Of a DNA stretch of 35,334 bases, positions 4,005-21,674 are shown piece after piece; within the stretch, counting starts at the first letter, position 1, and every line of letters begins with the position of its first letter. The position numbers and the translations under genes were made by a program. The DNA comes from a virus (Duplodnaviria; Heunggongvirae; Uroviricota; Caudoviricetes), in IMG/VR virus record IMGVR_UViG_2778261179_000021, positions 1-35,334 of that record. One strand, 5' to 3'. Below the pieces are notes generated by a model. The model ran no database searches, was not told the DNA's origin, and saw nothing but the letters and a program-made list of their open reading frames with translations.

Positions 4005-4042
4005 ATTTTTAAAGCCATCATATAATTCTCAGTCAAAGTTGA

Positions 4043-5118: not shown

Positions 5119-5138
5119 AGGAGGGCTTTGCCCGACTG
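5119..5138 (+). repeat. 20-bp direct repeat copy 1 (AGGAGGGCTTTGCCCGACTG)
   Basis: Matches 5508..5527 at 19 of 20 positions; contains internal GGGC...GCCC dyad. Confidence 0.75.
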
Positions 5139-5507: not shown

Positions 5508-5527
5508 AGGAGGGCTATGCCCGACTG
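5508..5527 (+). repeat. 20-bp direct repeat copy 2 (AGGAGGGCTATGCCCGACTG)
   Basis: Matches 5119..5138 at 19 of 20 positions; 389 bp downstream of copy 1. Confidence 0.75.
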
Positions 5528-5612
5528 AATACAATCACCTTTCATAATAACAAGAATTTTCTCTTTATAAATAATATTAGATTGATTCACTTTCTTTTAG
5601 AGGATTTCCACT

Positions 5613-6080: not shown

Positions 6081-6115
6081 GTTAGGTCAACCCTTTGGCG
6101 TCTTGTCAAGGGGTA

Positions 6116-6143
6116 TTGACAAAATTTTCTGACTTTTTATGAT
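6116..6143 (+). promoter_or_regulatory. sigma70-type promoter (TTGACA-16 nt-TATGAT)
   Basis: Consensus -35 TTGACA at 6116..6121 and -10 TATGAT at 6138..6143 with a 16-nt spacer, upstream of the 6202 and 6441 genes. Confidence 0.55.
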
Positions 6144-6201
6144 TATCGCACTTGACAACTTTGAACCTATTTGACCTAGATTTGTAAAGAGGATGTTAAT
6201 T

Positions 6202-6348
6202 ATGAACACTACTAAGAAAATTGATGGACGTAAAAACCCGAACCGCAAACCGTGGACCCCAAACCTGAATTTCTCAATGGTTGACTTCCATGAACGCCAG
6301 CGTCGCATTCAAGAAGAAATTGATCGCGCGATTGCTGAATCTAAATGA
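6202..6348 (+). CDS. small basic protein (48 aa)
   Basis: AAGAGGA RBS 7 nt upstream of ATG; translation MNTTKKIDGRKNPNRKPWTPNLNFSMVDFHERQRRIQEEIDRAIAESK; downstream of the strong promoter; absent from the track because shorter than 60 aa. Confidence 0.4.
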   Translation: MNTTKKIDGRKNPNRKPWTPNLNFSMVDFHERQRRIQEEIDRAIAESK

Positions 6349-6440
6349 GATAAAAATTTCTTTATAAATAAAATTGTTCCGGTGATGCTGCCGGAACTAG
6401 GAGGACCAAATCACTAAACCGTTTAAGGGGAATTTTTACT

Positions 6441-7271
6441 ATGAATACTGTTACTACTATGAATACTGCTGTTAAAACTGCTTCCGTGTCTCTGGTTGTT
6501 GATAACACCAAACCGCTGACCATGTCTACCCGTCAGATTGCTGAATTGACCGGAAAGAATCATAAGGATGTTATGCGTGATTTTCGTCGCATGATTGATT
6601 CTCTTGAAAAAGGAAGCGAATTAGCCGGGCGCAATTTTGCGCTGGGGTATTTTGTAGAATCTTCATATTTTGATAAGAATAATCAATCTCGCCCGATGTA
6701 TGAACTGGACGAAGATCTCTGTAATACTCTGGTTATGGGATACGATGCACCGCTTCGCTTCAAAATTGCTAAAGAATGGCGTTTGATGAAAGAAGGGAAA
6801 GCTAATGTTCCGGTTAATCCATATGAACACTTTGAAGAAACAGACTGGATCGAACTGGCGTTAAAGAAAACTCGCGAAAACAAACAACTGATTGAACTTC
6901 ATGTTCGTAAGTCTGTAGATAGCCATTCAATGACGCGTCTGTTAGGCGCTAAAAAGGGCGCTACGAAGGTTAAAGAAGCACTGACGGCCTTGCGTACTGC
7001 TGGATACATTGAGCGCGTCTATGATGAAAATAACAAGCCGTGTGGGTATGTTGCTAATGATTCCGCTTTACCGTTTTGCAGCATGAACGCTCACTATCAG
7101 CTTTCTTTTACTGTTGATGTGCTTCCGGTGTTGGTTGAATTTGGTGTTCTGGAAGAAGAACAAAAAGCAACTCTGAATCTTCCTAAGCCGAACAACACTA
7201 TTCTGATTCAAAATAAAGCGGCTGAACGTCTCCGTCAGAATGTTGGATCACTGGAAGTCTTCGGACTGTAA
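6441..7271 (+). CDS. Rha-family phage regulatory protein (antirepressor-like)
   Basis: N-terminal motif MSTRQIAELTGKNHKDVMRDFRRMIDSLEK is characteristic of the phage Rha domain; 276 aa; followed by an intrinsic terminator. Confidence 0.7.
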   Translation: MNTVTTMNTAVKTASVSLVVDNTKPLTMSTRQIAELTGKNHKDVMRDFRRMIDSLEKGSELAGRNFALGYFVESSYFDKNNQSRPMYELDEDLCNTLVMGYDAPLRFKIAKEWRLMKEGKANVPVNPYEHFEETDWIELALKKTRENKQLIELHVRKSVDSHSMTRLLGAKKGATKVKEALTALRTAGYIERVYDENNKPCGYVANDSALPFCSMNAHYQLSFTVDVLPVLVEFGVLEEEQKATLNLPKPNNTILIQNKAAERLRQNVGSLEVFGL

Positions 7272-7279
7272 TAATTTTT

Positions 7280-7305
7280 AGCCTCGCCTAGTGCGGGGCT
7301 TTTTC
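7280..7305 (+). terminator. intrinsic terminator after the Rha-like gene
   Basis: AGCCTCGC-CTAGT-GCGGGGCT hairpin (one G-U pair) followed by TTTTT. Confidence 0.55.
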
Positions 7306-7379
7306 ATACCTACATCACGCGACTTTTCGCGCCATCTTCCACCAACCCGCCGATGGCGTTTTGGACACCCTACAGATAC

Positions 7380-7403
7380 AAAAAAGCCACTCCGAAGAGT
7401 GGC
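7380..7403 (-). terminator. intrinsic terminator for the leftward HTH genes
   Basis: GCCACTC-CGAA-GAGTGGC hairpin preceded on the + strand by AAAAAA (a T-run on the minus strand). Confidence 0.55.
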
Positions 7404-7411
7404 AAAGAGAA

Positions 7412-7645
7412 TCAAAAACCTGTTGCTTCTACGATCTGACCATCACCGATCTGAACATAGAATTTAATGTCTAACTTCTTCATATTCTTATAGAATTGGG
7501 CGATTGAGATCCCATGTTCACTAAGAATCTGTTCTTTCGCTTCCTTACCACGATCCGCTGTATAGTAAGCGTAGGCAATATCAGCCATCTGTTCTTTAGT
7601 AAATCGTGCCGGACGACCGCGAGTAGCTTTAGTAGTCATAGTCAT
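7412..7645 (-). CDS. small HTH-module protein (77 aa), paralog of the 4043..4222 protein
   Basis: ATG at 7645 with GGAGAAA RBS (track ORF begins at an upstream GTG); TRGRPARFTKEQMADIA...HGISIAQFYKNMKKLDIKF resembles psq/resolvase-type HTH seen in phage DNA-binding proteins and some small terminases. Confidence 0.6.
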   Translation of the reverse strand: MTMTTKATRGRPARFTKEQMADIAYAYYTADRGKEAKEQILSEHGISIAQFYKNMKKLDIKFYVQIGDGQIVEATGF

Positions 7646-7674
7646 TTTCTCCAAATTAAAGTGAATGTTCACCT

Positions 7675-8280
7675 TTATTTAGAGGACTTAGATTTTATAG
7701 GAAAAAGTTCTCCATCGTCAACTGACATAAAGAACTCGACCTTAATCTCGTACTTCTTCAACCGTGAATAATATGTACCCCGACTTATATCAACCTTGCG
7801 AAGCACTTCAAAGAAGGATTTAGGATCGTTGTAATAGTGGCTGTACTTCACGTTAGCGAGTTCTACAAACAATTCCCTTGTATCACCATATCCTTTCTTA
7901 AAAGCTATGTTACGTGGCATTGTAATAGCCATATTATCCCTTGTCTGCTTCAACACTTCTCTGATCGGCTTCCACTGCAAACGATAGATAGGACCGTCAT
8001 CAATGCGATAATAACGCTTGATATCAAAATCAAACCAATCTCGGACTCTCCGAAACTCTGTATGTGATGTTCTATGCTTCTTAAAGAAGTTGTGAACGTC
8101 TCTATAGCCATTATCACGGTAAAATTCTATTAAAATCTCTTTCGCTTCCTCACGGCTAAACCCAGATGTTGTGTAATCGGTCTTTAAGTGCTTATGTTTT
8201 ACTGGCAAACGATATTCATGATCGGTACAACAAGACAAGGCTAATTCTACTTCATCTCTTTGTTGCTGATTAATTAGCAT
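7675..8280 (-). CDS. protein with two tandem HTH-like modules related to the small HTH paralogs (201 aa)
   Basis: ATG at 8280 with AAGGGGG RBS; internal duplication (…FFKKHRTSHTEFRRVRDWFDFDIKRYY… and …FFEVLRKVDISRGTYYSRLKKYEIKVEFF); transcribed divergently from the large terminase gene. Confidence 0.65.
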   Translation of the reverse strand: MLINQQQRDEVELALSCCTDHEYRLPVKHKHLKTDYTTSGFSREEAKEILIEFYRDNGYRDVHNFFKKHRTSHTEFRRVRDWFDFDIKRYYRIDDGPIYRLQWKPIREVLKQTRDNMAITMPRNIAFKKGYGDTRELFVELANVKYSHYYNDPKSFFEVLRKVDISRGTYYSRLKKYEIKVEFFMSVDDGELFPIKSKSSK

Positions 8281-8367
8281 ACAACCCCCTTAAATCTTAA
8301 TACCCGTATTTATCAAAATATCAACAATTTAATAAATACCTTCATATTTCGTAATGAGGGTAATTAC

Positions 8368-10272
8368 ATGAAACTGATTTCGAACAAGGCCAAATTAAAA
8401 AAGATTCTCAGAAATGTTTCTGCTGCAATTCGCCCACCTAAAGCGATGAAACCTAGTGAATGGGTAGAGGCTAATGTAGTTGCAACCGATGGTGTTAAAG
8501 CCGGATCTCTTATTAAATTGCATCACTTCCAACGTGGGATGATGGACGCGATTACCGAAGATAAGCGAAAGATTGTCATGAAATGCTCGGCGCAGTTGGG
8601 TAAAACTATGGTGCTCAACGGTATTATCTTTCACAGGATCGCCACCAATCCAACCAATATAGGTGTTTTACAAGCGAACGTTCGAGAATTGAACTCATGG
8701 ATCGCGGGTAAGGTGAAGCCAGTATTAGAGGCAACCCCAGAATTAAAGGCGATGATCACCGACAAATCGGATCGCAATGCCGTTAATAACACATCGCAGA
8801 TACAGCTTAGAAATGGGTCGTTTCTTTATTTCATGTCATTGAATAGTCCATCCCATCTCCGGGGTAAGACTTTGCCGTTGATCCTTGCAGACGAGGTGGA
8901 TGGTTGCGACGAATCAGACGAAGGGAACCCGATCCAGCTAGCGGAACAACGTGCTTCCACTTTCGGGGAAGATGCAAGGATCGTAATTGCTTCTACTCCA
9001 ACGTCGCGGGATGGGGCGATAAACCAACAATACGAACTCTCAGATAAACGAAAATACTATGTTCCATGCCAGCATTGCGGACACCGACACGTAATGGAAT
9101 GGAGTAACGTTCATTTCGATTGGCATCAAGTTAACGGTAAATCACTGCCTAACCCAGATACAGCCGTTTATCGTTGCCCGTCATGTGAAACTGATTGGAC
9201 AGAAGGGGATCGCCTACGTGCTGTTGCTAAGGGAGAATGGATCGCCACCGAACCTAATGCGGAAGTAATCGGTTTTCATGCTAACCGCCTTATGTCTCCG
9301 TTTAGTTCTATCCGTGCGTGTGTGGTGGATTTTGCTGATAGCTACGCGAATATGTCACTGGCAACGTTCTATAACACTGTCTTAGGTGAAACCTTCGATG
9401 ATCTTAACGAAGACCGCACAGCCGACGAACTGGAAACGCTGAAAACTGACATTAGCCTAGACAACATCCCCGATGATGTTCTGGCTCTGGTTGGTGGTGT
9501 TGACCAGCAAAAAGACCGTCTGGAATCTACCTTGCTGGGTATTTCTCGTAAAGGGCTATGCGTAGTTGATCACCGATCATTCTATGATGTGAACTGCGAA
9601 CGCCACGAATCGCCAGCATACAGCCAGCTTTACAACTTCCTGAAAGCGAAATTCTATACCCGATCCGGTCAACGAATCCCAATGCTATCTGCTTTCGTGG
9701 ACTCATCAAACGGACGAGCTACGCAAGTGATCTACCGATTCTGCACACAATGGCAAAACCTAACAGCCATTAAAGGGGCAAGCAATGTTGATGCACCAAT
9801 CCTTCCGGTAAAAGACACAAGAACGGGCGGTTTTACTCTCAAAATTCTGGGCGTAAACAACCTTAAGACGATGATCCGTGAAATGATTAACCGGAACTTG
9901 AGAGATGGCGATCCTCACACTGTTTTCCAGATTGGCGACGTTCCTGATGACTATTGCGAGCAATTGCTTTCTGAACAGTTGAAACGGCAGGGTAATACCA
10001 CACGTTGGGTAAAAGTTGGTCAGCAACGAAACGAGGCGCTCGACTGCCTGGCTTATTCCTATGCTGCTTCTCGCCATGTACTCAATAAAATGTCATGGGA
10101 AAAACTCGAAGCCATCAAAGATAGTTTGAACCGTGAACCAGAAGAATCCGTAGAAGCTCCTAAATCGCAATCTGACGAGAAAATAGAAGAAACTAAGCCA
10201 ATCACACGACCACAACGTCAAAACATCGCCAGACGCCCAAATAGAGGCCGTAGCTGGGTAACATCGTTCTAA
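8368..10272 (+). CDS. terL: terminase large subunit, lambda GpA family
   Basis: 634 aa; by-eye matches to lambda gpA landmarks: SAQLGKT Walker-like segment, zinc-ribbon-like PCQHCGH...RCPSCETDW, FYNTVLGETFD (lambda FVNTTLGETWE), QRNEALDCLAYSYAA (lambda RRNEALDCFVYALAA). Confidence 0.85.
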   Translation: MKLISNKAKLKKILRNVSAAIRPPKAMKPSEWVEANVVATDGVKAGSLIKLHHFQRGMMDAITEDKRKIVMKCSAQLGKTMVLNGIIFHRIATNPTNIGVLQANVRELNSWIAGKVKPVLEATPELKAMITDKSDRNAVNNTSQIQLRNGSFLYFMSLNSPSHLRGKTLPLILADEVDGCDESDEGNPIQLAEQRASTFGEDARIVIASTPTSRDGAINQQYELSDKRKYYVPCQHCGHRHVMEWSNVHFDWHQVNGKSLPNPDTAVYRCPSCETDWTEGDRLRAVAKGEWIATEPNAEVIGFHANRLMSPFSSIRACVVDFADSYANMSLATFYNTVLGETFDDLNEDRTADELETLKTDISLDNIPDDVLALVGGVDQQKDRLESTLLGISRKGLCVVDHRSFYDVNCERHESPAYSQLYNFLKAKFYTRSGQRIPMLSAFVDSSNGRATQVIYRFCTQWQNLTAIKGASNVDAPILPVKDTRTGGFTLKILGVNNLKTMIREMINRNLRDGDPHTVFQIGDVPDDYCEQLLSEQLKRQGNTTRWVKVGQQRNEALDCLAYSYAASRHVLNKMSWEKLEAIKDSLNREPEESVEAPKSQSDEKIEETKPITRPQRQNIARRPNRGRSWVTSF

Positions 10273-10344
10273 TAACTCGCCGTCCTTCGGGGCGGCTTAC
10301 TCCTAAATATTGTTAATCCAATAACAATTAAATAAGGGGTAATT

Positions 10345-10839
10345 ATGAGTTTAGAACTAATTCCCTTAGTAATTCGTAAAGGCGAAAAAATCACGCTGGC
10401 GAATGAAGAGGGTGTAACAATTCAGGTAGGAAATAGTAAAGGTATCATTTATCAGGTTGATGATACTCCGGCTAATCACGAGATTAAAACCTTAGATTTT
10501 GCCGAGGGTAAATATACCATCGTAACCACGTTGGAAGATGAACTGGTATCAATGCAGGAATTAACTGTTTTACCTATTTTTCAGCGTCAATCCAAAAAAG
10601 AACATCTGCGGGAAACTATCGCCACCATCGAGCAAGTTATTTTCGCCAGGCTATCGGGGGACGAGGCCGCATTATCTCAAATGACAGTGAAAGGGAATAC
10701 TTTCGCCTATGAGTCATTAGGTGTTCTCCAGCAATTAAAGACTGATTATGAACGTCAACTGTCTAAATTAATTCAAGCCGAACGACGTAAACAGGGAATT
10801 AGCCCGATTAAAAATATCAAATTACGTCTTACGCGATAA
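10345..10839 (+). CDS. head-associated protein between terminase and portal (possible head-tail joining protein)
   Basis: AAGGGG RBS; 164 aa; position corresponds to gpW in lambda-like order; no recognisable motif. Confidence 0.5.
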   Translation: MSLELIPLVIRKGEKITLANEEGVTIQVGNSKGIIYQVDDTPANHEIKTLDFAEGKYTIVTTLEDELVSMQELTVLPIFQRQSKKEHLRETIATIEQVIFARLSGDEAALSQMTVKGNTFAYESLGVLQQLKTDYERQLSKLIQAERRKQGISPIKNIKLRLTR

Positions 10840-10849
10840 GGGGTAAATC

Positions 10850-12361
10850 ATGTTTAATCTTTTTCGACGCAAAAAGGCGGTAGAAACTCCAGTTAAAACT
10901 AATCACCGCCAGCAACAACAAAAAATTTTCATCGACAAACAAGTAGAAAAATTCCAGAAAGATTTGTCTAAACGTTCTTTGGGCTTAGTCGGTGATCGCA
11001 TTGATGGATCACTTCAACAAGACACTATTACAGGAACCTTCAATAAGGCTCTCAAATCGAACGGTAAGCGCCTTTATGACCAGGGTCGTACTCTGGCCTT
11101 AAACACTTCCGTAGGTAGTCGCTACACGCAATACATCACCGATATGGTGGTTGGTACTGGTCTAGATCCGAAGCCGTCAGTTGTTAAATCAAATGGCAAA
11201 CTTGATAGCGCACTGAATAAGCAGATCGAGAATGCTTTCTGGAAGTGGGCGCAGAATGCTAAACGCTTCTCTCGTAACGGTCGCTTTAACTTCCGTGAAT
11301 TGCTGGTAATGGCTGAACGTGAGCGCGTTATGGGTGGTGAGTGCTTCATAGTTTTAACCAAAGAAAACAATGAGTTAAATGTTTCTATCCTGTCTGCTGA
11401 TAAGTGCGACTGGACGCTCAACCGTGAAGTAAGCAAAGAACGCGCTATCTATCAGGGGATCGAGTATGACGTAGAAACAATGCGCCCTGTTGCATTTTGG
11501 TTTCGTAAAATCAACCTACTGACTCAGACTTACACAGGTGATAACTATCGCGTAGATGCTTCGCAAGTATGCCATTATTATCAACCACTTGCGGCTGAAT
11601 CTCTGCGTGGTGTGACTGACTTCCTGCCAGTGATTAAGGATATCGCACATCAAGACGCATTCCGCTTAACTGCTATCGTCCAGAAACGTATTGCAGCTAG
11701 CTCTATGGGCTTTATCGAACGTCCGAAAGATTCTGGTGACGATTTTGATACTGGTGAAGAGGATGAACAATATCAAGCGCCGGAAGTAGTACAGGATTTT
11801 GCACCGGGTACTATTCAGGAATTGCCGGAAGGGGCAACGATCAAGAGCATCCAGGCGACGCAAAGCGGTGATGATTTCAATTCCTTCAATGATGCGATGT
11901 TTACTAGCGTATCAATGGGCTTAGGCGTGTTCAAACAGGGCTTGACTGGTGATACTTCCCAGATCAACTACTCAGCCGCGCGTTTTGGGGAACTAACCCA
12001 GCGTAACCGTGTTAAAGCACTGCAAAACAAATTAATTGAAACAGTGGTATTGCCAATTTTCGAAGCGTATCTGCGTCATTATTCCGCGCGTGGTATTGTT
12101 CCGATTCGTATTACTGCAATTCCGCATATTATCGATAACACTACTATTATTCGTCCGCGTTTTGAATCCGTCGATCCATTTAAAGACGTAAGCGCCGAGA
12201 TTGCTTTAATTGATAACGGACTTAAATCACGTACTGCCGTTATATTAGAACGTGGTGATGATCCTGAAAAAGTATTCTCAGAGATTCAAGCCGAAAAGAG
12301 CGCACTAAATATTATCGTTGATGGTGAGGGTGAAGAAAAAAATTCCCCAGCCGATCCCTAA
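10850..12361 (+). CDS. portal protein (lambda gpB-like)
   Basis: 503 aa ORF immediately downstream of terL and upstream of the protease-capsid gene; size and position typical of a lambda-family portal. Confidence 0.75.
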   Translation: MFNLFRRKKAVETPVKTNHRQQQQKIFIDKQVEKFQKDLSKRSLGLVGDRIDGSLQQDTITGTFNKALKSNGKRLYDQGRTLALNTSVGSRYTQYITDMVVGTGLDPKPSVVKSNGKLDSALNKQIENAFWKWAQNAKRFSRNGRFNFRELLVMAERERVMGGECFIVLTKENNELNVSILSADKCDWTLNREVSKERAIYQGIEYDVETMRPVAFWFRKINLLTQTYTGDNYRVDASQVCHYYQPLAAESLRGVTDFLPVIKDIAHQDAFRLTAIVQKRIAASSMGFIERPKDSGDDFDTGEEDEQYQAPEVVQDFAPGTIQELPEGATIKSIQATQSGDDFNSFNDAMFTSVSMGLGVFKQGLTGDTSQINYSAARFGELTQRNRVKALQNKLIETVVLPIFEAYLRHYSARGIVPIRITAIPHIIDNTTIIRPRFESVDPFKDVSAEIALIDNGLKSRTAVILERGDDPEKVFSEIQAEKSALNIIVDGEGEEKNSPADP

Positions 12362-12406
12362 TAACCAACGGGGGCGCAATGCCCCCAATTAATTAAAGGT
12401 GATTAA

Positions 12407-14410
12407 ATGCTTAAATTTCGCCGCGATCTTAACGGTTACGGTGGGGTTATTAATGAAGGGCATAACGATCAATACGAATTTGAAATTGCTTTCTCAAGTA
12501 CACAGCCTTATCAGCGCCAATTTTGGGATGAGCAAAATCAAGAAATGGTGGTATTAGATGAAATTCTGGTACATACACCGGAAGCGGTTGATCTGTCTCG
12601 TCTGAATAATAACGCTCCGTTGCTGTTCAATCACAATTTCGATAATCACATTGGTGTCGTTTGTAACGCTCGAATCGATGCGGATAACGTAGGTCGTGCT
12701 CTGGTTAAATTCTCCAAGCATGGGACTATGGCTAATGATATTCGTAACAAAGTCATTGAAGGTACGATGGAAAAAATATCGGTCGGCTATGACATTAAAG
12801 AGTATCACATCGATTACGCCAAAGGGCAATTGATTGTTACTAAGTGGGCACCCTATGAACTCTCATTTGTCACCGTTCCCGCAGACGATACGGTCGGTTT
12901 AAATCGCTCTCTAAATACTATCACAGTTAATTTGGAGGCTAAACGCGATATGACTAAAGAACAAATTGAAGAAATCAAAGAAGAACAAGAATCCGCTCAG
13001 GTTGAAGAAACTCCGGTAGAAGAAAATAAAGAATCGGAAGTAGAAGAAACTCAAGAGCGCCAAGTTGAAGAGAATAAAGAAGATGAAAATCTCGAAGACG
13101 GAAAAGACGCTGAACATCCTGAAAGTGTTGATGATGATAGTTCAACTGTTCGGGAAGCAGAAGAAGTAAAAGAAGAACGTGAAGCCGCTCCGGTTGAAGA
13201 AGAAAAAATCGAAGAAGTGGCTGAACGTTCCGAAGAAGACGAATTAGAAATTCGCGAGATCGCTCGCGAGCTAAATATTAACGACGAAGAATTAGAACGC
13301 GCATTGGCAGTTAAAGATATGACGCCGGAAGCATTCCGCACTAAGGCACTAAATAACATTACCAATGCTCAACGTATTAACGAACAACAAATTAAGGACT
13401 CTAAAATGGAAAAAACTTTTGACCTGAACAACGTAATTCGCTCTCTGGTAGATGGTGAAGCTCTGGGTGCTAACGAAGCCGAGTTTTCTGCAATGGCTGC
13501 TACTGCAACTATGCAGCGTGGTCGTGCTGCTCGCGGTGGCTCTGTATTCGTTCCGACTGCTGCTATGCGTGCTGCTGCTGATGGTAACACCAAAGCTACT
13601 CTGACCGCTGTAACCGACGAAAAACTGCTGAATGATTCCTATGTAGCGATGCTGATGCCGGAATCCGTTCTGGGTCGTCTGGGTGTGAAAGTCCTGTCTG
13701 GTCTGACTTCTCCGACTGCTATTCCGAAAATGACCGCTTCCAGCGTTGAATCTTTCGGCTTCGTTGATGAAAACGGTGCTGCACCGGAAGGTAAAGCTGA
13801 ATTTGCAAACGTGAAAATGGCTCCGAAAACTTTTGCTGGTGGCAACCCGATCAGCCGTCAGTCTCTGAAAACCGTTCCGGGCATCGCTACCCTGATCACT
13901 GATCACATTAACCAAGCTGTTCGTGTCAAACTGGAACAACTGATTCTGTCTGATAAAGAAAATGCTCGTGGTCCGGCTGGTGTGATTAAGCAACTGGTTG
14001 ATGCAAGCCGTGTTGAGAAGAAAGCTGCTTTCTCTTACAAAGACTTCCTGAAAGAAATTGCTAAACTGACCGACGCTGGCGTTCCTGCTCAGGCGATCAA
14101 GTTTGCGATGAGCGGTGCAACTGCTGCTGAACTGGAATCTACCCTGAAAGATAACGGTGTTTCCGGTTATATCATCGAAAACGGTAAACTGGCTGGTTAC
14201 GACGTAGTTACTTCTGGTGTTATTCCGGTAGACCACATCGTTCTGGGTGACTTCTCCGCTATTACCATCGGTGAATGGGGCGGTCTGGAACTGGACATTG
14301 ACGACACTACCTACCGCGCACAGTCCGCAATTGTTCCGCGTATCTGGGTAGATCTGGATTATGTAGTTACCCAGCCGGAAGCTCTGAAAGTTCTTCACGT
14401 CTCTGAATGA
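12407..14410 (+). CDS. fused prohead protease (HK97/S78-like) - acidic scaffold-like linker - major capsid protein
   Basis: 667 aa; N-terminal domain ends with the protease-family signature ...YELSFVTVPADD; about 130 residues of E/K-rich low-complexity linker; C-terminal about 330 aa consistent with an HK97-fold capsid protein; ends in TGA. Confidence 0.8.
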   Translation: MLKFRRDLNGYGGVINEGHNDQYEFEIAFSSTQPYQRQFWDEQNQEMVVLDEILVHTPEAVDLSRLNNNAPLLFNHNFDNHIGVVCNARIDADNVGRALVKFSKHGTMANDIRNKVIEGTMEKISVGYDIKEYHIDYAKGQLIVTKWAPYELSFVTVPADDTVGLNRSLNTITVNLEAKRDMTKEQIEEIKEEQESAQVEETPVEENKESEVEETQERQVEENKEDENLEDGKDAEHPESVDDDSSTVREAEEVKEEREAAPVEEEKIEEVAERSEEDELEIREIARELNINDEELERALAVKDMTPEAFRTKALNNITNAQRINEQQIKDSKMEKTFDLNNVIRSLVDGEALGANEAEFSAMAATATMQRGRAARGGSVFVPTAAMRAAADGNTKATLTAVTDEKLLNDSYVAMLMPESVLGRLGVKVLSGLTSPTAIPKMTASSVESFGFVDENGAAPEGKAEFANVKMAPKTFAGGNPISRQSLKTVPGIATLITDHINQAVRVKLEQLILSDKENARGPAGVIKQLVDASRVEKKAAFSYKDFLKEIAKLTDAGVPAQAIKFAMSGATAAELESTLKDNGVSGYIIENGKLAGYDVVTSGVIPVDHIVLGDFSAITIGEWGGLELDIDDTTYRAQSAIVPRIWVDLDYVVTQPEALKVLHVSE

Positions 14411-14542
14411 ACTAACGTAGAACCTTCTGAACCTTCCCCCGATTTGGGGGAAGAAAATCTGATTCCATCTCAGGAAGAAGAAGTTCAAGAGGTTACGGCG
14501 AAAGCCACAGTTAAAAAAGAACGTAAGACTAAAGCAAAATAA
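14411..14542 (+). other. in-frame 43-codon extension downstream of the capsid TGA stop (candidate readthrough product)
   Basis: No stop codons in the capsid frame from 14411 to TAA at 14540..14542; encodes TNVEPSEPSPDLGEENLIPSQEEEVQEVTAKATVKKERKTKAK; near-identical module follows the major tail gene. Confidence 0.5.
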
Positions 14543-14547
14543 TAATT

Positions 14548-14575
14548 AGCCCTGCCTAACGGTGGGGCTTTTTTG
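14548..14575 (+). terminator. intrinsic terminator after capsid gene and extension
   Basis: AGCCCTGCC-TAAC-GGTGGGGCT hairpin followed by TTTTTT. Confidence 0.7.
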
Positions 14576-14604
14576 TATGTAAATACTCCATAAAGGGGGT
14601 AACT

Positions 14605-14895
14605 ATGTTCAAATTATCAGAATCACAATTATCAAGAATGTTTAAGAGTGCTCCTGTATTTGTGGTGGAAGGTGGTAAATCAATTCGTGCTTACCATGAA
14701 ATTACTACTACCGACGAACAAGGGGTAATTACAGAATCAGAATTTCTATTTTGTCGTGAGGGAGACTTAAATCAGGGTGATGTTGTCATTGTAGACGGTG
14801 AACGCTTCAAAGTTCAATACGTTAAGCGCAATGGTGATAATACTTCTGATTGCTTTATTGCTCGTGCAGGGGGTACACATGCTCGCTACCGTTAA
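14605..14895 (+). CDS. putative head-tail adaptor / head completion protein
   Basis: AAAGGGGG RBS; 96 aa; first gene after the capsid terminator; function inferred from position only. Confidence 0.45.
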   Translation: MFKLSESQLSRMFKSAPVFVVEGGKSIRAYHEITTTDEQGVITESEFLFCREGDLNQGDVVIVDGERFKVQYVKRNGDNTSDCFIARAGGTHARYR

Positions 14896-15301
14896 TAATA
14901 TGCCTAGACTGAAAATCAAACGCGCCTTGCAGGATATTATCGAACAAGATTTAGGTCTGGCTTTAAACGTAGAACAAACTCAGCAAGGCTTTAGTGATGA
15001 TGTGGTTTGTTGGATTACCGGAATGAATGAGACTTACAATAGGGTCCGTGGTGGTAATGCAATGCAAGCTGAATGCGTTATCGAAATGCAGTTGTATTCT
15101 CAGAATCATGAAACCAAAATTCATGAGGGTATTTGCCAGATAATCCAGATTCAGCCGGATAATCCACGTTTTAAAGATTTGGGCTTCTCTATTTCAGATA
15201 TCACTCCAGTAGCTTCTAATACCGATTATGACGATGATTCTAGTGATGGGGGTATCGTTGGGACACTTAGCCTTAAATTTTCTTATCTAGCGCGTTTTTA
15301 A
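14879..15301 (+). CDS. putative neck / tail completion protein
   Basis: Track ORF 14798..15301; preferred start ATG 14879 with AGGGGG RBS, overlapping the upstream stop (ATGCTCGCTACCGTTAA); function inferred from position. Confidence 0.45.
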   Translation: MLATVNNMPRLKIKRALQDIIEQDLGLALNVEQTQQGFSDDVVCWITGMNETYNRVRGGNAMQAECVIEMQLYSQNHETKIHEGICQIIQIQPDNPRFKDLGFSISDITPVASNTDYDDDSSDGGIVGTLSLKFSYLARF

Positions 15302-15310
15302 GGGGTAATA

Positions 15311-16144
15311 ATGAATATTACACAAGATAACTTAGATATTTTCACTGGATCACATGTTGAAGTGTCGATCTCTAACCAGATAGACAATCAGGTCGACTTT
15401 TTCGATCCTAGCTTTAGTTCTATGGAGAACATCGCAGCATTCCCTACGCTAACCGAATCCACAGAGATAGAAACTCTGGAAGAGTACGATCAGGACGCTA
15501 CGGGGAAACTTGCTGGTTATCGTAGACTGGAACCGACAACACTCACATTAAACCGTGTTCTTGACGATGAACATCAAGCAATGTTGATGAAAGCGGTAGA
15601 GGATAAAACACCTTTACGCTTCCGTATGTTCTATGTTGTGAACTCTGGCTATAGTGCTGCTAACACAGGGTACTTTTGTATATTCGATGCTTACGTCACA
15701 TCACATAAAACCCGTGGTAGTGATAACAAAGCTGTAACACTGGAATTTAAACTTGAACCAGATGGCGGGATTCTGGCAAGGGGTATTGCTACCGAAGGCC
15801 GGATCTTACGTCAGGGTGATTTTGGTTTGGGTGCTGGTGTAAATCCATTCACGGGTCCAATTGATAGCGAGGCATTAGCCGGAAACCGTTTCGTAACTTA
15901 CAAGGGAACTGCTAGCGGTAATCCATATTCAACCGACACAGCATTAATTCACCTTCAAGCCAATGAGCATGGCGCATGGCAATTAACCTGTAATACTTCC
16001 GGCGCACCACGTTTACGCGTCCGAAATATTCAGGAAAACGGACGCTCTGAATGGATCAAGGTATATTCCACCAATGAGAAACCGACACCTAGCGAAATTG
16101 GCGCAGTAGCTAAGACTGACCGGATCGATTTCGGGGAGTATTGA
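15311..16144 (+). CDS. virion structural protein (possible tail terminator or tail-tube-like protein with C-terminal beta-rich domain)
   Basis: AAGGGG RBS; 277 aa ORF within the late operon; function from position and composition only. Confidence 0.5.
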   Translation: MNITQDNLDIFTGSHVEVSISNQIDNQVDFFDPSFSSMENIAAFPTLTESTEIETLEEYDQDATGKLAGYRRLEPTTLTLNRVLDDEHQAMLMKAVEDKTPLRFRMFYVVNSGYSAANTGYFCIFDAYVTSHKTRGSDNKAVTLEFKLEPDGGILARGIATEGRILRQGDFGLGAGVNPFTGPIDSEALAGNRFVTYKGTASGNPYSTDTALIHLQANEHGAWQLTCNTSGAPRLRVRNIQENGRSEWIKVYSTNEKPTPSEIGAVAKTDRIDFGEY

Positions 16145-16219
16145 TTCACTTCCTAAATAAAACATGAACGTTGGGAGGTTAACGCCTCCCTTATTCCTGT
16201 TTTATAGTGAGGTGATTCG

Positions 16220-19200
16220 ATGCAGTCGATCCAATTTAAACGCACACAGACGGCTGGTAAAAAACCAACGCCGGAACAATTATCACAGGGTGAGATCGCC
16301 TTACAACTGGCGGACCATGTGATTTACACCAAAGACAAAAATAATAATGTAGTTCAAATTAGTGTTTCTCCAGAAAAACACGCTGAACTGAATACGAAAG
16401 TAGACAATAACAAAACTAGCACTGACCGTGTTATTGCAGCAAATAAGAAAGAAGCTGCTGATAATCTGGCTAGTGCTAAAGCTGAACTTAATCAGACTAT
16501 CACTTCTACCCGTGATACCCTCAATGCTTCAATCACTGCTGGCGATACCGCAGCCAACAAACGAATTGATGCTTTGACTACCACAGTAGGTAACAATAAA
16601 ACCGAAGCGGCTAACGCTCTGGCGGCTGCTAAGACTGAACTGAATCAGACTATTACTTCAACCCGCGATACTATCAACGCGACAATTAACAAGAACAAGA
16701 CAGATATTAATGCGCGAGTTGATCAGACGAATACCAACGTTACCAACTTAACGAATACTGTCGCAGCAAATAAATCAGCAATAGAAAAGACGGTAGCGGA
16801 TAATAAGAAAGATGCGGACACGAAGATCACCAATCTTACTAGTACGGTCTCTGCGAATAAGACAGCCATTGAAAGAACTGTTGCAAATAACAAGGCCAGT
16901 GCCGATGCCGCAATTGCCGCAGCTAATCAGCGAATTGATTCGATTGAAGGTAGTGCCGATGCTGCTTACATCAAGAAGAATACCAACACTTACCATCACG
17001 GGTATTTGTTAAGCAAGACCGCTAACTATTTTGATGATGCTGGCGCACGTAACCTTGATTATTTTGGTGCGTTTCGTCCGAACAATGCCGAAGGTTGGGG
17101 TAACTTAATCCTTAACATTCCTCATTCTGGCGGTAAAGCCCACGGTCGCGGTTTTGAGTTCCACTATGGGTCTAGCTCATCTCAAGTTAAAACCTATGGC
17201 TTTGATAAAGATGGTAATAAGCGATTCAGCTACCGCATGTATCATGAAGGTGATAAGCCGACTCCTACTGAATTGGGTGTGTATAGTAAAGCCGAAGTTG
17301 ATCAGATGTTCACTAAACCCGTTCATATGTCAACTGGTGAAAATGCGGCTGGTTACTTTAAACTGGCAACGGCAACAATTCCACAAGGGGGTCGAGGCTT
17401 TTTCATCCGTATTTTCGGTGGAAATGGTTATAACGTTAATAGTCCTGATCAGTGTGATATTGTAGAAATTGTTATCCGTTCCGGTAATGGAAATCCGAAA
17501 GGTGTAAACGTTGTTGCTTATCGTCGTAATACTAATAACGAGTTTGAAACCTTTGCGGTTAATACTTCGGGTGATAACTATGATATCTATGTGAAATATC
17601 GCAAATACACCGATAAAGTTACTGTAGAGTACGGTAAAAGTGCTGATGTGACTTTAAATGTGTATGATACACCTGAATTAACTCTCGTTAAGCCGTCTAC
17701 TGGTGTTAACGAAGGTCGTGTTATTACCTTGTTTAATACTGAAAATAAACGCGGTACTCTGTCCTTTGATAATAACTCACAAGCAACTTACGATATTGTG
17801 AGTTTGAGCGCCGCACAGGACCGTAACAAAAAATATCTGCGTAAATTCCGTAGTCAAGCGGTAGAGACCATCTGGCATGAAGTTGTTAACGGTAGTTCAT
17901 ATCGTTTAGCTACTGGTGTTACCGATTCTACTGATGTTTTTCAGATTGATTCTACTGGCTCTGTTGCTGGTCCATATAAAGGCAACGTGACTACTGGACG
18001 TATGGAATTAAACGGTGGTAGTAATGCATTAACTTTGCGTCGTCCTGCTGGACAATCTAACCATATTACATTCCAAGATAACCGTAGTGGTAATATTACC
18101 CGTCAAGGCTGGATCGGTTATGGTGACGCTGATACTAACGCATTGCAGATATATAGCGATGTAGGAAGTAACAAATTTGCATTAGAAACTAACGGTCAGA
18201 TCTCTCTGAATGTTGGCGCAACAAAAATTGTTTACTCTAACGGACAATATTATTCCGCTAACTCAGATGCATTCCGTATGATTTACGGTAATTACGGTGC
18301 ATTCTGGCGTAATGATGGCACTAAAGTATATTTGTTATCTACTGCTGAAAATGATCGTTTTGGTGGCTGGAACGGCAACCGTCCGTTCATTTACGATTTA
18401 ACTAACGGTAAAGTTACTTTAGGTGGTGATGGTAACGAAGGTGCATTAGTTCTTGAAAGAGATAGCCGTGCTGCTCGCTTTAGTAATAACGTATTCTTAG
18501 AGAAAGGTTTGCTTACGTTCTCTGCTGGTGGAAATCAGTCGATGGATTCTTTCACGATTAACCATTGGGGGAATAGTAATGCCGATCGATATAACGTTTT
18601 GCAATTCCAGGACACTAGCGGAACTCACTTTACCACTGAACGTAACGGATCTGGCGGTTTGCTTGCTCATTTCCGAGGGGATTTAACTACCGAAGGAAAA
18701 TTAACGTGGGGTAAGGGTACAGCTACTTCTAGTTTCAATATTCGTGCATGGGGCGCTGATGCTCGTAAACAAGTATTTGAATGTGCTGATGAAAGCGGTT
18801 GGCATTGGTATACCCAACGTCCGGGCGGTCCGGGTACTACGGCAATTGAGTTTGCTATCAACGGTACTGTTAAGCCTCAAGCAATTCACACTGGCGGCAA
18901 TATTCTTTTGAACGGTGCTGATATTGAATTTCGTCGCACTGGTAATAAGCATATCTGGTTTAGAGATCCAACTGGATTAGAACTAGGTTTGATGTATTCC
19001 GATGATGCTGGTGTTATTCGCTTCCGTGGTCAGAAACAAGCCCAGACGTGGAAACTTGCGGATAAGATGATCCAGTTGGAATCTGGTACTGTAACCGGAG
19101 GCGGTAATGGCCTGATTCGTGGTGAAGTTGCTGGCGGTAGTTGGGCTAGCTGGCGTGACCGTGCTGCTGGCCTTATGGTTGGGTGTCCTCGATCAACCGA

Positions 19201-19738
19201 TTCCGCTCATAACATCTGGAAAGCGACACATTGGGGTAAATATCACATTGCAGCAATGGGTGTGCATGTTCCTAGTGGTACTATCGGTAACGCTCTTGTG
19301 CGTCTCCATGTTCATGATACTAACTTTGACTTTAACGCTGCTGGTGATTTTACCGCAGGTCGCAACGGTAGCTTTAACGATGTTTACATTCGCTCTGACT
19401 CTCGTCTGAAAATTAACAAGGAAGAATTACAGGACGGCGCATTAGAGAAAGTAAACTCCCTGAAAGTCTACACCTACGATAAAGTTAAATCTCTTTCCGA
19501 TGACACAGTGATTAAACGCGAAGTAGGCATTATTGCTCAGGATCTGGAAAAAGTATTGCCGGAAGCGGTAGGTATTCAATCCACAGAAGATCCAGAACAT
19601 CCAGAAGCAATCAAGACTATTTCTAACTCTGCTGTCAATGCTTTAATCATCAAGGCTATGCAGGAAATGGACGCCAAATATAAAGCGCAGATCGAAGCAT
19701 TACATAAAGAGATTGCCGAACTGAAAGCAACTAAATAA
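16220..19738 (+). CDS. long tail fibre with C-terminal intramolecular chaperone (peptidase S74-like) domain
   Basis: 1172 aa; N-terminal about 51-aa tandem repeats (…AKAELNQTITSTRDT…); C-terminal about 115 aa …IRSDSRLKINKEEL…VGIIAQDLEKVLPEAV…NALIIKAMQEMDAKYKAQIEALHKEIAELK match the self-cleaving chaperone domain of endosialidase/T5-type L-shaped fibres. Confidence 0.8.
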   Translation: MQSIQFKRTQTAGKKPTPEQLSQGEIALQLADHVIYTKDKNNNVVQISVSPEKHAELNTKVDNNKTSTDRVIAANKKEAADNLASAKAELNQTITSTRDTLNASITAGDTAANKRIDALTTTVGNNKTEAANALAAAKTELNQTITSTRDTINATINKNKTDINARVDQTNTNVTNLTNTVAANKSAIEKTVADNKKDADTKITNLTSTVSANKTAIERTVANNKASADAAIAAANQRIDSIEGSADAAYIKKNTNTYHHGYLLSKTANYFDDAGARNLDYFGAFRPNNAEGWGNLILNIPHSGGKAHGRGFEFHYGSSSSQVKTYGFDKDGNKRFSYRMYHEGDKPTPTELGVYSKAEVDQMFTKPVHMSTGENAAGYFKLATATIPQGGRGFFIRIFGGNGYNVNSPDQCDIVEIVIRSGNGNPKGVNVVAYRRNTNNEFETFAVNTSGDNYDIYVKYRKYTDKVTVEYGKSADVTLNVYDTPELTLVKPSTGVNEGRVITLFNTENKRGTLSFDNNSQATYDIVSLSAAQDRNKKYLRKFRSQAVETIWHEVVNGSSYRLATGVTDSTDVFQIDSTGSVAGPYKGNVTTGRMELNGGSNALTLRRPAGQSNHITFQDNRSGNITRQGWIGYGDADTNALQIYSDVGSNKFALETNGQISLNVGATKIVYSNGQYYSANSDAFRMIYGNYGAFWRNDGTKVYLLSTAENDRFGGWNGNRPFIYDLTNGKVTLGGDGNEGALVLERDSRAARFSNNVFLEKGLLTFSAGGNQSMDSFTINHWGNSNADRYNVLQFQDTSGTHFTTERNGSGGLLAHFRGDLTTEGKLTWGKGTATSSFNIRAWGADARKQVFECADESGWHWYTQRPGGPGTTAIEFAINGTVKPQAIHTGGNILLNGADIEFRRTGNKHIWFRDPTGLELGLMYSDDAGVIRFRGQKQAQTWKLADKMIQLESGTVTGGGNGLIRGEVAGGSWASWRDRAAGLMVGCPRSTDSAHNIWKATHWGKYHIAAMGVHVPSGTIGNALVRLHVHDTNFDFNAAGDFTAGRNGSFNDVYIRSDSRLKINKEELQDGALEKVNSLKVYTYDKVKSLSDDTVIKREVGIIAQDLEKVLPEAVGIQSTEDPEHPEAIKTISNSAVNALIIKAMQEMDAKYKAQIEALHKEIAELKATK
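16430..16930 (+). repeat. in-frame tandem repeats (about 153-nt unit) within the tail fibre shaft
   Basis: For example GCTAAAGCTGAACTTAATCAGACTATCACTTC at about 16475 versus GCTAAGACTGAACTGAATCAGACTATTACTTC at about 16628. Confidence 0.6.
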
Positions 19739-19794
19739 TAAAAGTCGGGGGACTAGTTCCCCCGTAATAACAATTTTAATTAAGGGGTAATTCT

Positions 19795-20268
19795 ATGTCT
19801 CAGCAATTTAAAGATATTTTTACTGGTGGTCTGGTAAGTCTGTTCTATCACGCCGACACCACTAATACCGCTCTCGACCACGAAAGCTACGAAGAAATTA
19901 AAGAGTGTGCTGGTTTTCCTGAAACTGGTATCGAGCGCGGTACTGTAGAAGTTAAATCCTTCTCTTCTCAGTATAACCGTAAACTGGTAGGTAAACTGAA
20001 CGTTCCTGATCTGACTCTGACCGTTAACTACATCCCAGGTGATGCGGTACATGAAAAACTGATCAAAGCTGCCGAAGACGGTACTCGTATTCAGATTAAA
20101 GTAGAATATTACGTTGACGCAGCAAAACAGACTGGTATTCGCACCGCTTTCAACGGCTTCATTTCTAAAGTTGCTATGAACGGTGGCGATGAAGAAGTTG
20201 TAACCAAAGAGTTTACCTTCGCGGTGGATGGTGCTCCGCTGAAACAGCAAATCTTCACTGCCGGATGA
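19795..20268 (+). CDS. putative major tail (tube) protein
   Basis: AAGGGG RBS; 157 aa; sits in the V position upstream of G/GT and tape measure; ends in TGA followed by the same extension module as the capsid gene. Confidence 0.5.
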   Translation: MSQQFKDIFTGGLVSLFYHADTTNTALDHESYEEIKECAGFPETGIERGTVEVKSFSSQYNRKLVGKLNVPDLTLTVNYIPGDAVHEKLIKAAEDGTRIQIKVEYYVDAAKQTGIRTAFNGFISKVAMNGGDEEVVTKEFTFAVDGAPLKQQIFTAG

Positions 20269-20388
20269 ACTAACGAAGAACTTCCCGAACCGGAACCACA
20301 GCCGGAACATGAAGCGGTGGTGATTCCAGAAGTAGAAGAAGTTACGGCGAAAGCCACAGCTAAACGAAGCCGCAAGGCTAAAGATTAA
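20269..20388 (+). other. in-frame 39-codon extension downstream of the major tail TGA stop (candidate readthrough product)
   Basis: Open in the tail-gene frame to TAA at 20386..20388; encodes TNEELPEPEPQPEHEAVVIPEVEEVTAKATAKRSRKAKD, sharing EEV-TAKAT-K--RK-K with the capsid extension. Confidence 0.5.
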
Positions 20389-20393
20389 TTATA

Positions 20394-20422
20394 AGCCCTG
20401 CCTTAATGGTGGGGCTTTTTTA
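20394..20422 (+). terminator. intrinsic terminator after major tail gene and extension
   Basis: AGCCCTGCC-TTAAT-GGTGGGGCT hairpin followed by TTTTTT; near-identical to the terminator at 14548..14575. Confidence 0.7.
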
Positions 20423-20436
20423 TTGGAGTAATCAAA

Positions 20437-20943
20437 ATGGCGAATGTCGTTAATAAGCCTGGCTGGGTCGGGTCATCTGCTGTTTCTGTAACTGGTCAAC
20501 GATGGATGAGCGCAGCAATGAACGCATTAAAGGTTAGTCGCCCAGCTAACATGAGTGCGATGTGTGGTCGTGGTATGGATACGGTTGTAGCTACTGCTGC
20601 GTGGTCTACTTCATTGGGTAATAACTGGGGTGTAACTGCTTCAAACTATCCAGTAACTGACATGCGCGGTAAAGGATCTATGGAGAACCCCGAAAACGTG
20701 GGCGTAGGGCGTCTGATTGGCGTTATCGTTGGTCAATTCAATGGCGGTACTCCTACTATGGCTGTATATCTCCAGAACGGTAGAGCGGGGAATATAACCG
20801 TTAATTTGGGTGGTGCTGCTGTCACTGTTCTTTATAACAGTATGCAAAGTGGTTTTCATTACTATTGGTTAAGCAATCCTCCGGCTGCTTTCCTTACCAA
20901 CATTAAGAAGACTGGCACTAAGCAGACTTTGAAAATCTCTTAA
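20437..20943 (+). CDS. hypothetical virion-associated protein (beta-rich, 168 aa)
   Basis: GGAG RBS; ORF between the major tail gene and the G chaperone; no recognisable motif. Confidence 0.45.
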   Translation: MANVVNKPGWVGSSAVSVTGQRWMSAAMNALKVSRPANMSAMCGRGMDTVVATAAWSTSLGNNWGVTASNYPVTDMRGKGSMENPENVGVGRLIGVIVGQFNGGTPTMAVYLQNGRAGNITVNLGGAAVTVLYNSMQSGFHYYWLSNPPAAFLTNIKKTGTKQTLKIS

Positions 20944-20985: not shown

Positions 20986-21294
20986 ATGAATATTAATGAA
21001 ATGCTGAAAGCTCTTTCTCCGAAACGTGAATCTCTGACCATCGGCGGATTCACGTTCTATGCTCGCCCTATGTCAGTAAAAGAATTTAACGAACATGTTT
21101 TCAATACTGATAAAGAAGACCGTGATGAACGTTCGATTCTTCGTTGTATTGAAGATGAAGACGGTAAACCGGTATTTGAATCTATGGAACAAGTTAAGGC
21201 ACTGTATACTAACGTCCGCAGTGAATTAATCGGTTTGGTTGCTCAAGCATCATTGATGCAAGATCCGGCAGTAATTGAAAACGAGGTAAAGTAA
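20986..21294 (+). CDS. tail assembly chaperone G
   Basis: AAGAGGA RBS; 102 aa immediately upstream of an overlapping -1 frame ORF and the tape measure gene (canonical G/GT arrangement). Confidence 0.6.
   Translation: MNINEMLKALSPKRESLTIGGFTFYARPMSVKEFNEHVFNTDKEDRDERSILRCIEDEDGKPVFESMEQVKALYTNVRSELIGLVAQASLMQDPAVIENEVK
21286..21294 (+). other. candidate -1 programmed frameshift site (GUA AAG UAA) generating a G-T fusion
   Basis: The T frame (-1 relative to G) is open from 21279; A-AAG immediately before the G stop codon allows tRNA-Lys to re-pair on AAA in the -1 frame. Confidence 0.45.
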
Positions 21295-21323: not shown

Positions 21324-21674
21324 ATGATGCGATCGGGGCTTAGTAAAGATGAAATGGATAATATGCCAATCACTCTGTTTTGGAAATTATACATTTTCGA
21401 CACCTACTTAGAACCACAAAGCCCCGCGTTTCATGATATGCAGAATGCGATGTTGCAATATTCCATGTATATGACGTCGCAAGGAATGACTCGTGAAACT
21501 GCAAAGAAACTCAAGCCTAGCCAATTCCAATTAATTAGAGAAGAAAAACTCTTTAAAACTAAAGAAGAACTGGAAGAACTTGCACGCAAGAAAGAAGAAG
21601 AACGTAAAGCTGCAACATTGAGCATGTTCGATCCATCTTTGCTTGAGAAACTCAGAAGCGCACAAACGGGGTAA
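21324..21674 (+). CDS. tail assembly chaperone T segment (probably expressed as a G-T fusion by -1 frameshift)
   Basis: 116-aa ORF in the -1 frame relative to G, without a convincing RBS of its own, ending 4 nt before the tape measure start. Confidence 0.55.
   Translation: MMRSGLSKDEMDNMPITLFWKLYIFDTYLEPQSPAFHDMQNAMLQYSMYMTSQGMTRETAKKLKPSQFQLIREEKLFKTKEELEELARKKEEERKAATLSMFDPSLLEKLRSAQTG

Follow-up and report, generated by a model that had tools for sequence, protein, structure and literature searches.

A shared in-frame 3′ module behind putatively leaky UGA codons of the capsid and tail tube genes of a tailed phage

The capsid and tail tube genes of a tailed virus were found to end in the same stop context, UGA followed by A, and to be continued in frame by related, uninterrupted extensions of 43 and 39 codons that specify a charged tail and close just before an intrinsic terminator. 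The window analysed, a stretch of 35,334 nucleotides that makes up the IMG/VR record IMGVR_UViG_2778261179_000021, contains two copies of this 3′ module and no third. Readthrough of the UGA, which would yield a minority of capsid and tube subunits carrying a charged surface tail, is considered the probable explanation, and coding of the extensions by readthrough is well supported by comparative genomics. An earlier sequence-only reading of the tail copy had named three alternatives: a recoding signal, an RNA element, or a shared C-terminal tag that only some of the subunits receive. The comparative data favour a recoding signal whose product would be such a tag, and an additional RNA-level role may exist beside translation.

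The tail tube ORF comprises 157 codons at positions 19795..20265 of the plus strand, on which all features of both modules lie. Its 157-aa product matches PHROG 158 (major tail protein) with an E value of 3e-21, and weak matches to the Pfam families Phage_TTP_11/12 were also obtained. In addition, the lambda gpV tube domain (7t2e_A/7t4f_A) and the core of its AlphaFold2 model (pLDDT >80) can be superposed with an rmsd of 2.8-2.9 Å over 163 columns. The ORF ends GCC GGA TGA, and this TGA (20266..20268), the candidate leaky stop, is followed by A in the context UGA ACU. The in-frame extension behind it, TNEELPEPEPQPEHEAVVIPEVEEVTAKATAKRSRKAKD, spans 39 codons (20269..20385) and consists of an acidic, proline-rich spacer with a net charge of -9 and a basic tip, formed by the last 15 residues, with a net charge of +5. 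The extension was predicted by AlphaFold2 to be disordered, with pLDDT values of 33-41 and no secondary structure (39-45 aa). It is closed by a tight TAA (20386..20388), located 4-5 nt 5′ of the stem of an intrinsic terminator (20393..20423) that has a 10-bp stem, a 5-nt loop and a T-run (AAGCCCTGCC-TTAAT-GGTGGGGCTT). Two antisense ORFs in this region, 19780..20310 and 20109..20375, were discarded, as they are unannotated throughout the related RefSeq prophages inspected.

The first copy of the module follows a prohead protease-scaffold-major capsid fusion ORF of 667 codons (12407..14407), which carries the Pfam domains Peptidase_S78 and Phage_capsid and whose 667-aa product matches the PHROG 617 major head protein (E=7e-90). 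Its candidate leaky stop (14408..14410) reads GAA TGA, again in the context UGA ACU, and the in-frame extension of 43 codons (14411..14539) closes with tandem TAA TAA (14540-14545), 5′ of an intrinsic terminator at 14548..14575. The stretches 20393-20417 and 14548-14569 are the two best terminator-like sites between positions 12000 and 25000, the tail copy scoring top, and the stem variants seen in relatives are still paired. The identities assigned beforehand, major tail and capsid genes, are thus borne out by PHROG 158 and the gpV-like model in one case and by Peptidase_S78 and Phage_capsid in the other. Likewise, the coordinates and sequence of the tail copy (GGA TGA, 39 open codons, TAA at 20386 and a terminator hairpin) were confirmed, as was the existence of a second copy with a near-identical terminator at the capsid gene.

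It had further been claimed that the two genes share this module at both the nucleotide and the peptide level. When the copies were aligned with each other, the likeness proved to extend beyond the terminator hairpin, since both share ATGAACTAACGnAGAAC around the stop (starting at 14407 and 20265) and an exact 19-mer, GTTACGGCGAAAGCCACAG, which codes for VTAKAT, is located at 20341..20359 in the tail copy and at 14492 in the capsid copy, with 0 matches expected in shuffles. Outside the stop context, the 19-mer and the terminator, the DNA of the two copies differs and the peptides are similar in character. Gaps of 9 nt in total, of 3 nt within the open frame and of 1 nt in the loop of the terminator separate the tube and capsid copies.

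Copies of the module were gathered from RefSeq E. coli genomes, IMG/VR, metagenomes and contigs carrying homologous tube proteins, which resulted in 84 copies, 37 of them unique at the time of the frame count and 42 unique after later additions. The window is an E. coli prophage: its tail region was present in 22 and its capsid 3′ region in 55 of 5,426 complete E. coli genomes, and among the lysogens MEI003 and H2 match the tail region at 97-98% identity. The anatomy of the module, its conservation and its coding signature can be read directly from these copies. TGA-A stands in frame and directly 5′ of the extension in all 84. The ORF closed by this TGA has ~667-691 codons in the case of the capsid and ~161-166 in that of the tube, and neither a sense codon nor TAA replaces the junction TGA in any module copy. 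The extensions vary between 25 and 45 codons. Frame 0 is free of stops in 37/37 unique extensions and the +1 and +2 frames are blocked in 37/37, and among the 42 unique extension ORFs no in-frame stop or frameshift was found despite 10 indel events. A length divisible by three was seen for each of the 10 distinct gap runs in the extension, compared with only 1 of 9 in the adjoining 67 nt on the 3′ side (p=1.2e-4, Fisher test). These sequences are not independent, as the copies come mostly from one recombining E. coli prophage population.

The annotated gene stops at the TGA in every one of the RefSeq records inspected. One apparent natural fusion, a protein of 198 aa (P0001), was rejected because its DNA has TGA at the junction and the protein is an artefact of gene calling with TGA as Trp. 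No fused capsid-plus-extension protein was found when a database of 5.8 billion proteins was queried with the capsid end plus extension. The lack of sense-codon variants suggests that a tail on every subunit would be selected against.

The choice of stop codon is closely associated with the presence of the extension. TAA closes 29 of the 33 genes of the window, often as TAA-T or tandem TAA, and TGA closes 3; within the window TGA-A is confined to the capsid and tube genes, although these encode the most abundant virion proteins. Alleles lacking the extension, on the other hand, all end in TAA: this was verified for the E. coli tube alleles L002, L003, L083 and L110, for both genes in Salmonella, for the Providencia tube gene, and for Hafnia, Yersinia and phage DCP80. 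The E. coli TAA tube alleles end in ...QKVV followed by one stop and in ...FSAE followed by two.

The peptide is conserved in character. All TGA-gated alleles keep an acidic, proline-rich N-terminal part with a net charge between -3 and -9, their last 15 aa are basic (+5 to +6), and this charge pattern holds over six different C-terminal sequences. The pN/pS ratio of the extension was 0.49-0.65 versus 0.23-0.38 in the upstream 60 codons, indicating moderate amino-acid constraint, which fits a putative disordered tail in which composition would outweigh exact sequence.

Beyond E. coli, the capsid gene of Providencia sp. JUb39 reads GCG TGA ACT AAC GAA GAG TTG CCG, in frame and in diverged DNA, and the extension peptide behind this TGA is TNEELPEEEPLPVATEKSTKRRKSK. 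In Edwardsiella tarda, a related tail is fused without any stop to the tube protein of 175 aa (P0024), which ends ...NVIPEAVAAKEK / ...DAPLATYHMNVIPEAVAAKEK. Hafnia retains a 5-codon remnant, AKSKD, behind TAA.

Under the proposed readthrough, the weak UGA-A at the end of the tube and capsid genes would halt most ribosomes, and a small share, probably a few percent, would insert an amino acid there, most likely through near-cognate tRNA-Trp. These ribosomes would then translate 39 (tube) or 43 (capsid) codons up to the tight TAA before the terminator, so that the tube junction would read ...QQIFTAG-W-TNEELPEPEPQPEHEAVVIPEVEEVTAK. UGA-A is said to have been placed by Poole and colleagues, in 1995, among the weakest termination signals of E. 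coli. The stop context of the window, UGA ACU, is identical to that of the Qbeta coat gene (UAC UGA ACU), for which the annotation gives ~5% readthrough (NC_001890). Reporter measurements of UGA readthrough in E. coli K-12 gave ~2% at 37 °C and 4% at 25 °C, the outcome depending on the competition between Trp-tRNA and RF2 (PMC10570021). The window contains no tRNA gene, and no SECIS element or other Rfam family was matched at E<=5 between positions 14000 and 21000. RF2 is more active in natural E. coli isolates than in K-12, and the level of readthrough, which we infer along with readthrough itself, could therefore be well below 2%.

The structure of the RNA downstream of the stop differs among alleles, and in some capsid alleles it may be stimulatory, as is the case in part of the known readthrough systems. 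In the short capsid allele an 11-bp stem, AAUUGCCGGAA-GAAA-UUCCGGUAGUU, starts 10 nt 3′ of the UGA (z=-5.2), and the Providencia capsid allele has a 12-bp stem in the same place (z=-5.0), with one compensatory A-U to G-C pair. In the capsid copy of the window, an 8-bp hairpin (CTTCCCCC-GATTT-GGGGGAAG; 14433..14453; folding z=-2.4) is situated 22 nt 3′ of the TGA, and every long capsid allele has this hairpin. In the tail copy, folding 3′ of the UGA is not significant (z=-0.3), so that readthrough there would depend on the UGA-A context alone and would occur at a basal level. In E. coli and Providencia the extension lies in frame 0 behind the TGA, and the route would accordingly not be that of a frameshift.

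Several alternatives to a translated extension were weighed. It is unlikely that the module is an untranslated 3′ RNA element, such as an mRNA-stabilising end, a 3′-UTR small RNA or a terminator modulator, with an open frame present by chance or as a relic. Some conservation does appear at the level of nucleotides: the coding sequence on the flanks shows a synonymous divergence (pS 0.42-0.48) roughly twice as high as the module (0.21-0.23), and the 19-mer is almost invariant, no synonymous variant of it occurring in IMG/VR. A mini-hairpin within the 19-mer, GGC-GAAA-GCC (20346-20355), is replaced in relatives by the variants GGA-GAAA-TCC and GGT-GAAA-GCC, which retain pairing. Additionally, folding of the entire region is stronger than that of shuffled sequences (z=-3.2 and -5.5), largely through the terminator. 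The low synonymous divergence and the near-invariant 19-mer mean that part of the conservation may be at the RNA or DNA level or may result from recent spread by recombination. An RNA element, however, leaves unexplained why all ten indels keep the frame and just one of nine immediately downstream does so, why only frame 0 is open in every unique copy, and why TGA is strictly paired with the extension and TAA with its lack. Nor does it account for a charge pattern preserved over different C-terminal sequences or for the fused homologue in Edwardsiella, and Rfam offers no match. Judged from the aligned copies, an RNA role could therefore accompany translation but cannot replace it.

Slightly less likely still is a decaying relic, in which a formerly fused tail was cut by a nonsense mutation and the dead sequence was then moved along with the terminator by recombination. 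The directly fused version in Edwardsiella and the AKSKD remnant after the TAA of Hafnia would be natural companions of such decay, a pN/pS of 0.5-0.65 could be read as relaxed constraint, and most copies derive from a single recombining population of E. coli prophages. This explanation, however, would need the same TGA to have arisen or persisted at two genes and in Providencia, and would have to leave 42 unique ORFs without a second stop or a frameshift after 10 indel events. Moreover, TAA is the normal stop of the phage, yet it never replaces the TGA.

A regulatory role by attenuation is very improbable. In this case, ribosomes that read through as far as the TAA, 4-6 nt short of the terminator stem, would mask this stem, the frequency of readthrough would set downstream transcription and the peptide would be irrelevant. 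The constant distance of ~4-8 nt between the extension stop and the terminator stem, the blocks of less abundant structural genes that follow both modules and the extra conservation at the nucleotide level are all compatible with it. However, in the extension-less alleles the only stop is equally near to the same type of terminator, so that this spacing is not special to the module, and a few percent of the ribosomes could alter termination only slightly; the charge pattern and the fused homologue would also be left unexplained. Finally, dedicated UGA decoding (selenocysteine with a SECIS, or a suppressor tRNA) and a separate peptide made by re-initiation are scarcely credible, since the strong hairpin 10 nt 3′ of the UGA in some capsid alleles is absent from the tail copy and lies at another distance in long capsid alleles, the window is devoid of tRNA genes, SECIS and Rfam matches, and the in-frame GTG GTG of the tail copy (20314-20319) is not a conserved start, since GTG ATT of the tail copy corresponds to CTG ATT in the capsid copy. 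An independent ORF beginning at the GTG GTG at 20314 was likewise rejected because the capsid copy has CTG there, as was a mini-ORF ATG AAC TAA overlapping the stop (ATGAACTAA), which is not conserved, other alleles reading GAG TGA AAT and GAC TGA ACT CCT.

If UGA readthrough takes place as proposed, a minority of the subunits in both the tube and the capsid of each virion would end in a disordered tail, whose acidic proline-rich spacer would carry a lysine/arginine-rich tip and would project from the outer surface of head and tube. At ~1-5% readthrough, the tails would number from a handful up to a few tens on a T=7 head of 415 subunits and a tube with ~190, a figure that comes from our own arithmetic on an assumed capsid size. 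The extension begins where the gpV tube domain ends and the Ig-like domain of gpV starts, and this Ig-like domain is located on the outside of the tube. Members of PHROG 158 run ~220 residues past the tube protein of the window, and these longer C-termini indicate that the C-terminus of the tube protein is a usual attachment point for accessory domains. On the capsid side, the C-terminus of the HK97-fold protein is exposed in T7, as known from gene 10B display. A low-copy surface tail is thus proposed from the gpV-like attachment point, the exposed capsid C-terminus and the predicted disorder. We also infer that extended subunits would be assembled into the virion, that the tail would point outwards and that it would have a role there.

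The function is the weakest step of this account. The tails could act as a low-copy decoration, for instance through weak electrostatic adhesion to anionic polymers of the cell surface or of a matrix, and surface display with adhesion is plausible given the composition of the peptide. No Pfam or PHROG family matched the extension, and the AT-hook family PF02178 gave no match in the two copies of the window, an allele with KKVGRPPKAK scoring 13.2 bits against a cutoff of 17.4. It is also conceivable, although doubtful, that the acidic spacer and basic tip constitute a mobile module that is expressed only through recoding (UGA readthrough in E. coli and Providencia, possibly -1 frameshifting in Edwardsiella) and that decorates head and tube at low copy in a manner dependent on host physiology. 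UGA readthrough in E. coli varies with temperature, growth state and cAMP (PMC10570021), so that the number of tails per virion would follow the physiology of the producing cell. Host translational fidelity would then help to determine the surface properties of the virion.

The closest known systems appear to be Qbeta A1 as regards mechanism, and the frameshift-made long forms of phages PSA, A118, A500 and A2, together with T3/T7 10B, as regards layout. In Qbeta, the major coat gene also ends in a leaky UGA, in the same context UGA ACU, and a few percent of readthrough gives an extended minor coat protein that enters the virion. The Qbeta extension, of ~196 aa, is folded and needed for infection. 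Qbeta is, however, an ssRNA phage, whereas the present case concerns a dsDNA tailed prophage with an extension of 25-45 aa that is predicted to be disordered; furthermore, two genes, capsid and tail tube, are extended here, and a transcription terminator lies behind the extension.

Frameshifting has been described as the source of long capsid or major tail forms in Listeria phages PSA, A118 and A500, in Lactobacillus phage A2 and in T3/T7 10B, and no other form of recoding is known at the ends of capsid and tail genes in tailed phages (PMC5009743). These systems resemble the present module in that recoding at the 3′ end of major virion genes provides a minority of C-terminally extended subunits, in that one kind of extension is added to head and tail, and in that the route varies between relatives. 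These phages, however, use +1 or -1 frameshifts and most of their extensions are folded Ig-like domains, whereas here an in-frame UGA, for which no slippery site is needed, precedes a short stretch predicted to be disordered, in which no folded Ig-like or FN3 domain was found (pLDDT 33-41, no Pfam or PHROG match). SPP1 gp17.1* is another long major tail form made by frameshifting. Lambda gpV, in turn, has an accessory C-terminal appendage exactly at the end of the tube domain, as in the tube gene studied here, but its appendage is constitutive, folded and present on every subunit, whereas here a stop-gated, disordered tail is proposed for a minority of subunits.

No report of UGA readthrough in the capsid or tail tube genes of tailed phages came up in a literature search of incomplete coverage. 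The present case, if true, would be the first programmed stop-codon readthrough in tailed-phage structural genes, as far as was found, and would join coat readthrough of the Qbeta type with the 3′-end recoding of tailed phages. The short, disordered extensions would form a new type of virion decoration, one that is never annotated by standard gene callers. They would also offer an easily tested natural system of UGA readthrough in E. coli. Other structural genes that end in TGA and have a long open frame behind them may conceal minor virion components.

A metagenome scan with the TGA-context pattern resulted in 5 real and 6 chance matches, a profile scan with the closer extension alignment recovered only contigs already known, and a scan of genome contigs with the tube-protein alignment added one distant Yersinia locus only, without the module. 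No close cultured relative was detected by blastn against a phage collection; the best tblastn match there was DCP80, which is 43% identical and has no module. The mEp-immI coliphages were set aside as cultured relatives because the phage collection gave no match to the tail region of the window, and the paper on these coliphages makes no mention of readthrough (PMC11893012).

The route by which the tail is expressed seems to vary among relatives. In the same Edwardsiella prophage that has the fused tube protein, the capsid gene has its copy, VIPTGREEVSVKSGRKPKTDN, in the -1 frame, and a heptamer G_GTA_AAG is located two codons 5′ of the capsid TGA. Different relatives would thus seem to arrive at a similar peptide through readthrough, through direct fusion or, perhaps, through a -1 frameshift, and indifference to the route of expression has been described for Ig-like domains added by frameshifting (PMC5009743). 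As a separate observation, G_GTA_AAG also stands in this phage family where the G-T frameshift of the tail chaperone has its conserved site (21285-21291 in the window), and Hafnia has the canonical A_AAA_AAG there.

Around the capsid copy of the module, the short alleles were found to carry an 11–12-bp hairpin located exactly 10 nt 3′ of the UGA, with a z-score of about –5 (L111, 7394–7453; L081, 3676–3735). A single compensatory change, from A-U to G-C, distinguishes this hairpin in E. coli from that in Providencia, and the structure is a candidate stimulator of readthrough. The tail copy lacks this 11–12-bp hairpin at 10 nt after its UGA. In this copy, a 9-bp long-range stem is predicted between window positions 20255–20263 and 20314–20322 (UCACUGCCG / CGGUGGUGA), so that the tail UGA, together with the initial 45 nt of the extension, lies between its two arms. 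This stem cannot form with a ribosome on the stop codon.

A different arrangement was observed at the capsid end of an Edwardsiella tarda contig (SRR5866647_268, L077, 1730–1860), where the capsid ORF terminates in ...CGC TTG GTA AAG CAA GGG TGA, with the heptamer G_GTA_AAG placed two codons upstream of the stop, while the –1 frame of this same region encodes a module-like peptide, VIPTGREEVSVKSGRKPKTDN, followed by a stop. Such an arrangement could allow an extension of this kind to be reached by –1 frameshifting, or could reflect a frame-breaking deletion of 1 nt. The heptamer G_GTA_AAG is also found in the window's tail assembly chaperone pair, composed of an ORF at 20986–21294 and a –1-frame ORF running through 21324–21674. 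In this pair, G_GTA_AAG at 21285–21291, one codon upstream of the TAA, is likely the non-canonical G-T slippery site; E. coli, Salmonella and Edwardsiella all retain this motif, and in its place Providencia has A_GTA_AAG and Hafnia the canonical A_AAA_AAG.

In a Hafniaceae contig (L082, 3996–4020), the capsid gene stops at TAA, and the next codons, GCT AAA TCT AAA GAT TAA, encode AKSKD and a stop; they resemble the 3′ end of the module, as if the rest had been deleted. Additionally, a 21-codon ATG ORF (MSLGAEALDAAPVKKSKSASG) lies between the capsid gene and the terminator of Escherichia phage DCP80 (PQ671644.1). This 141-kb phage is classified as Straboviridae, and its positions 1–18447 hold a siphovirus-type head–tail module related to the family of the window's prophage, with a tube protein of 43% identity; the record may represent a chimeric assembly. 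A public-database protein of 198 aa (P0001, ENA contig k141_243218) comprises the tube protein and the extension with W at the TGA. It was rejected as a natural fusion, since the metagenome gene caller had applied a TGA=Trp code to a short E. coli phage contig.

Stop codons in the window are strongly biased toward TAA, which ends 29 of the 33 genes, often as TAA-T or in tandem. The third TGA (gene 15311–16144) occurs as TGA-T, with a backup TAA three codons later.

The gene order at 16220–20943 is unusual. Within this region, a long tail fibre gene (1172 aa), with a T4 gp34-like trimerisation domain and an S74 chaperone, immediately precedes the tube gene, which is followed directly by a gene for a gp38-like adhesin (20437–20943). 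Relatives vary in this region: they may have different fibres, insertions of IS2 or IS421 or a GIY-YIG nuclease, or may lack the gp38 gene. Finally, in the intergenic stretch at 4791–4990 the motif TTGCCCC(C/T)GAAA is directly repeated at least eight times, with a spacing of about 20–60 nt, in a pattern resembling iterons or operator arrays.
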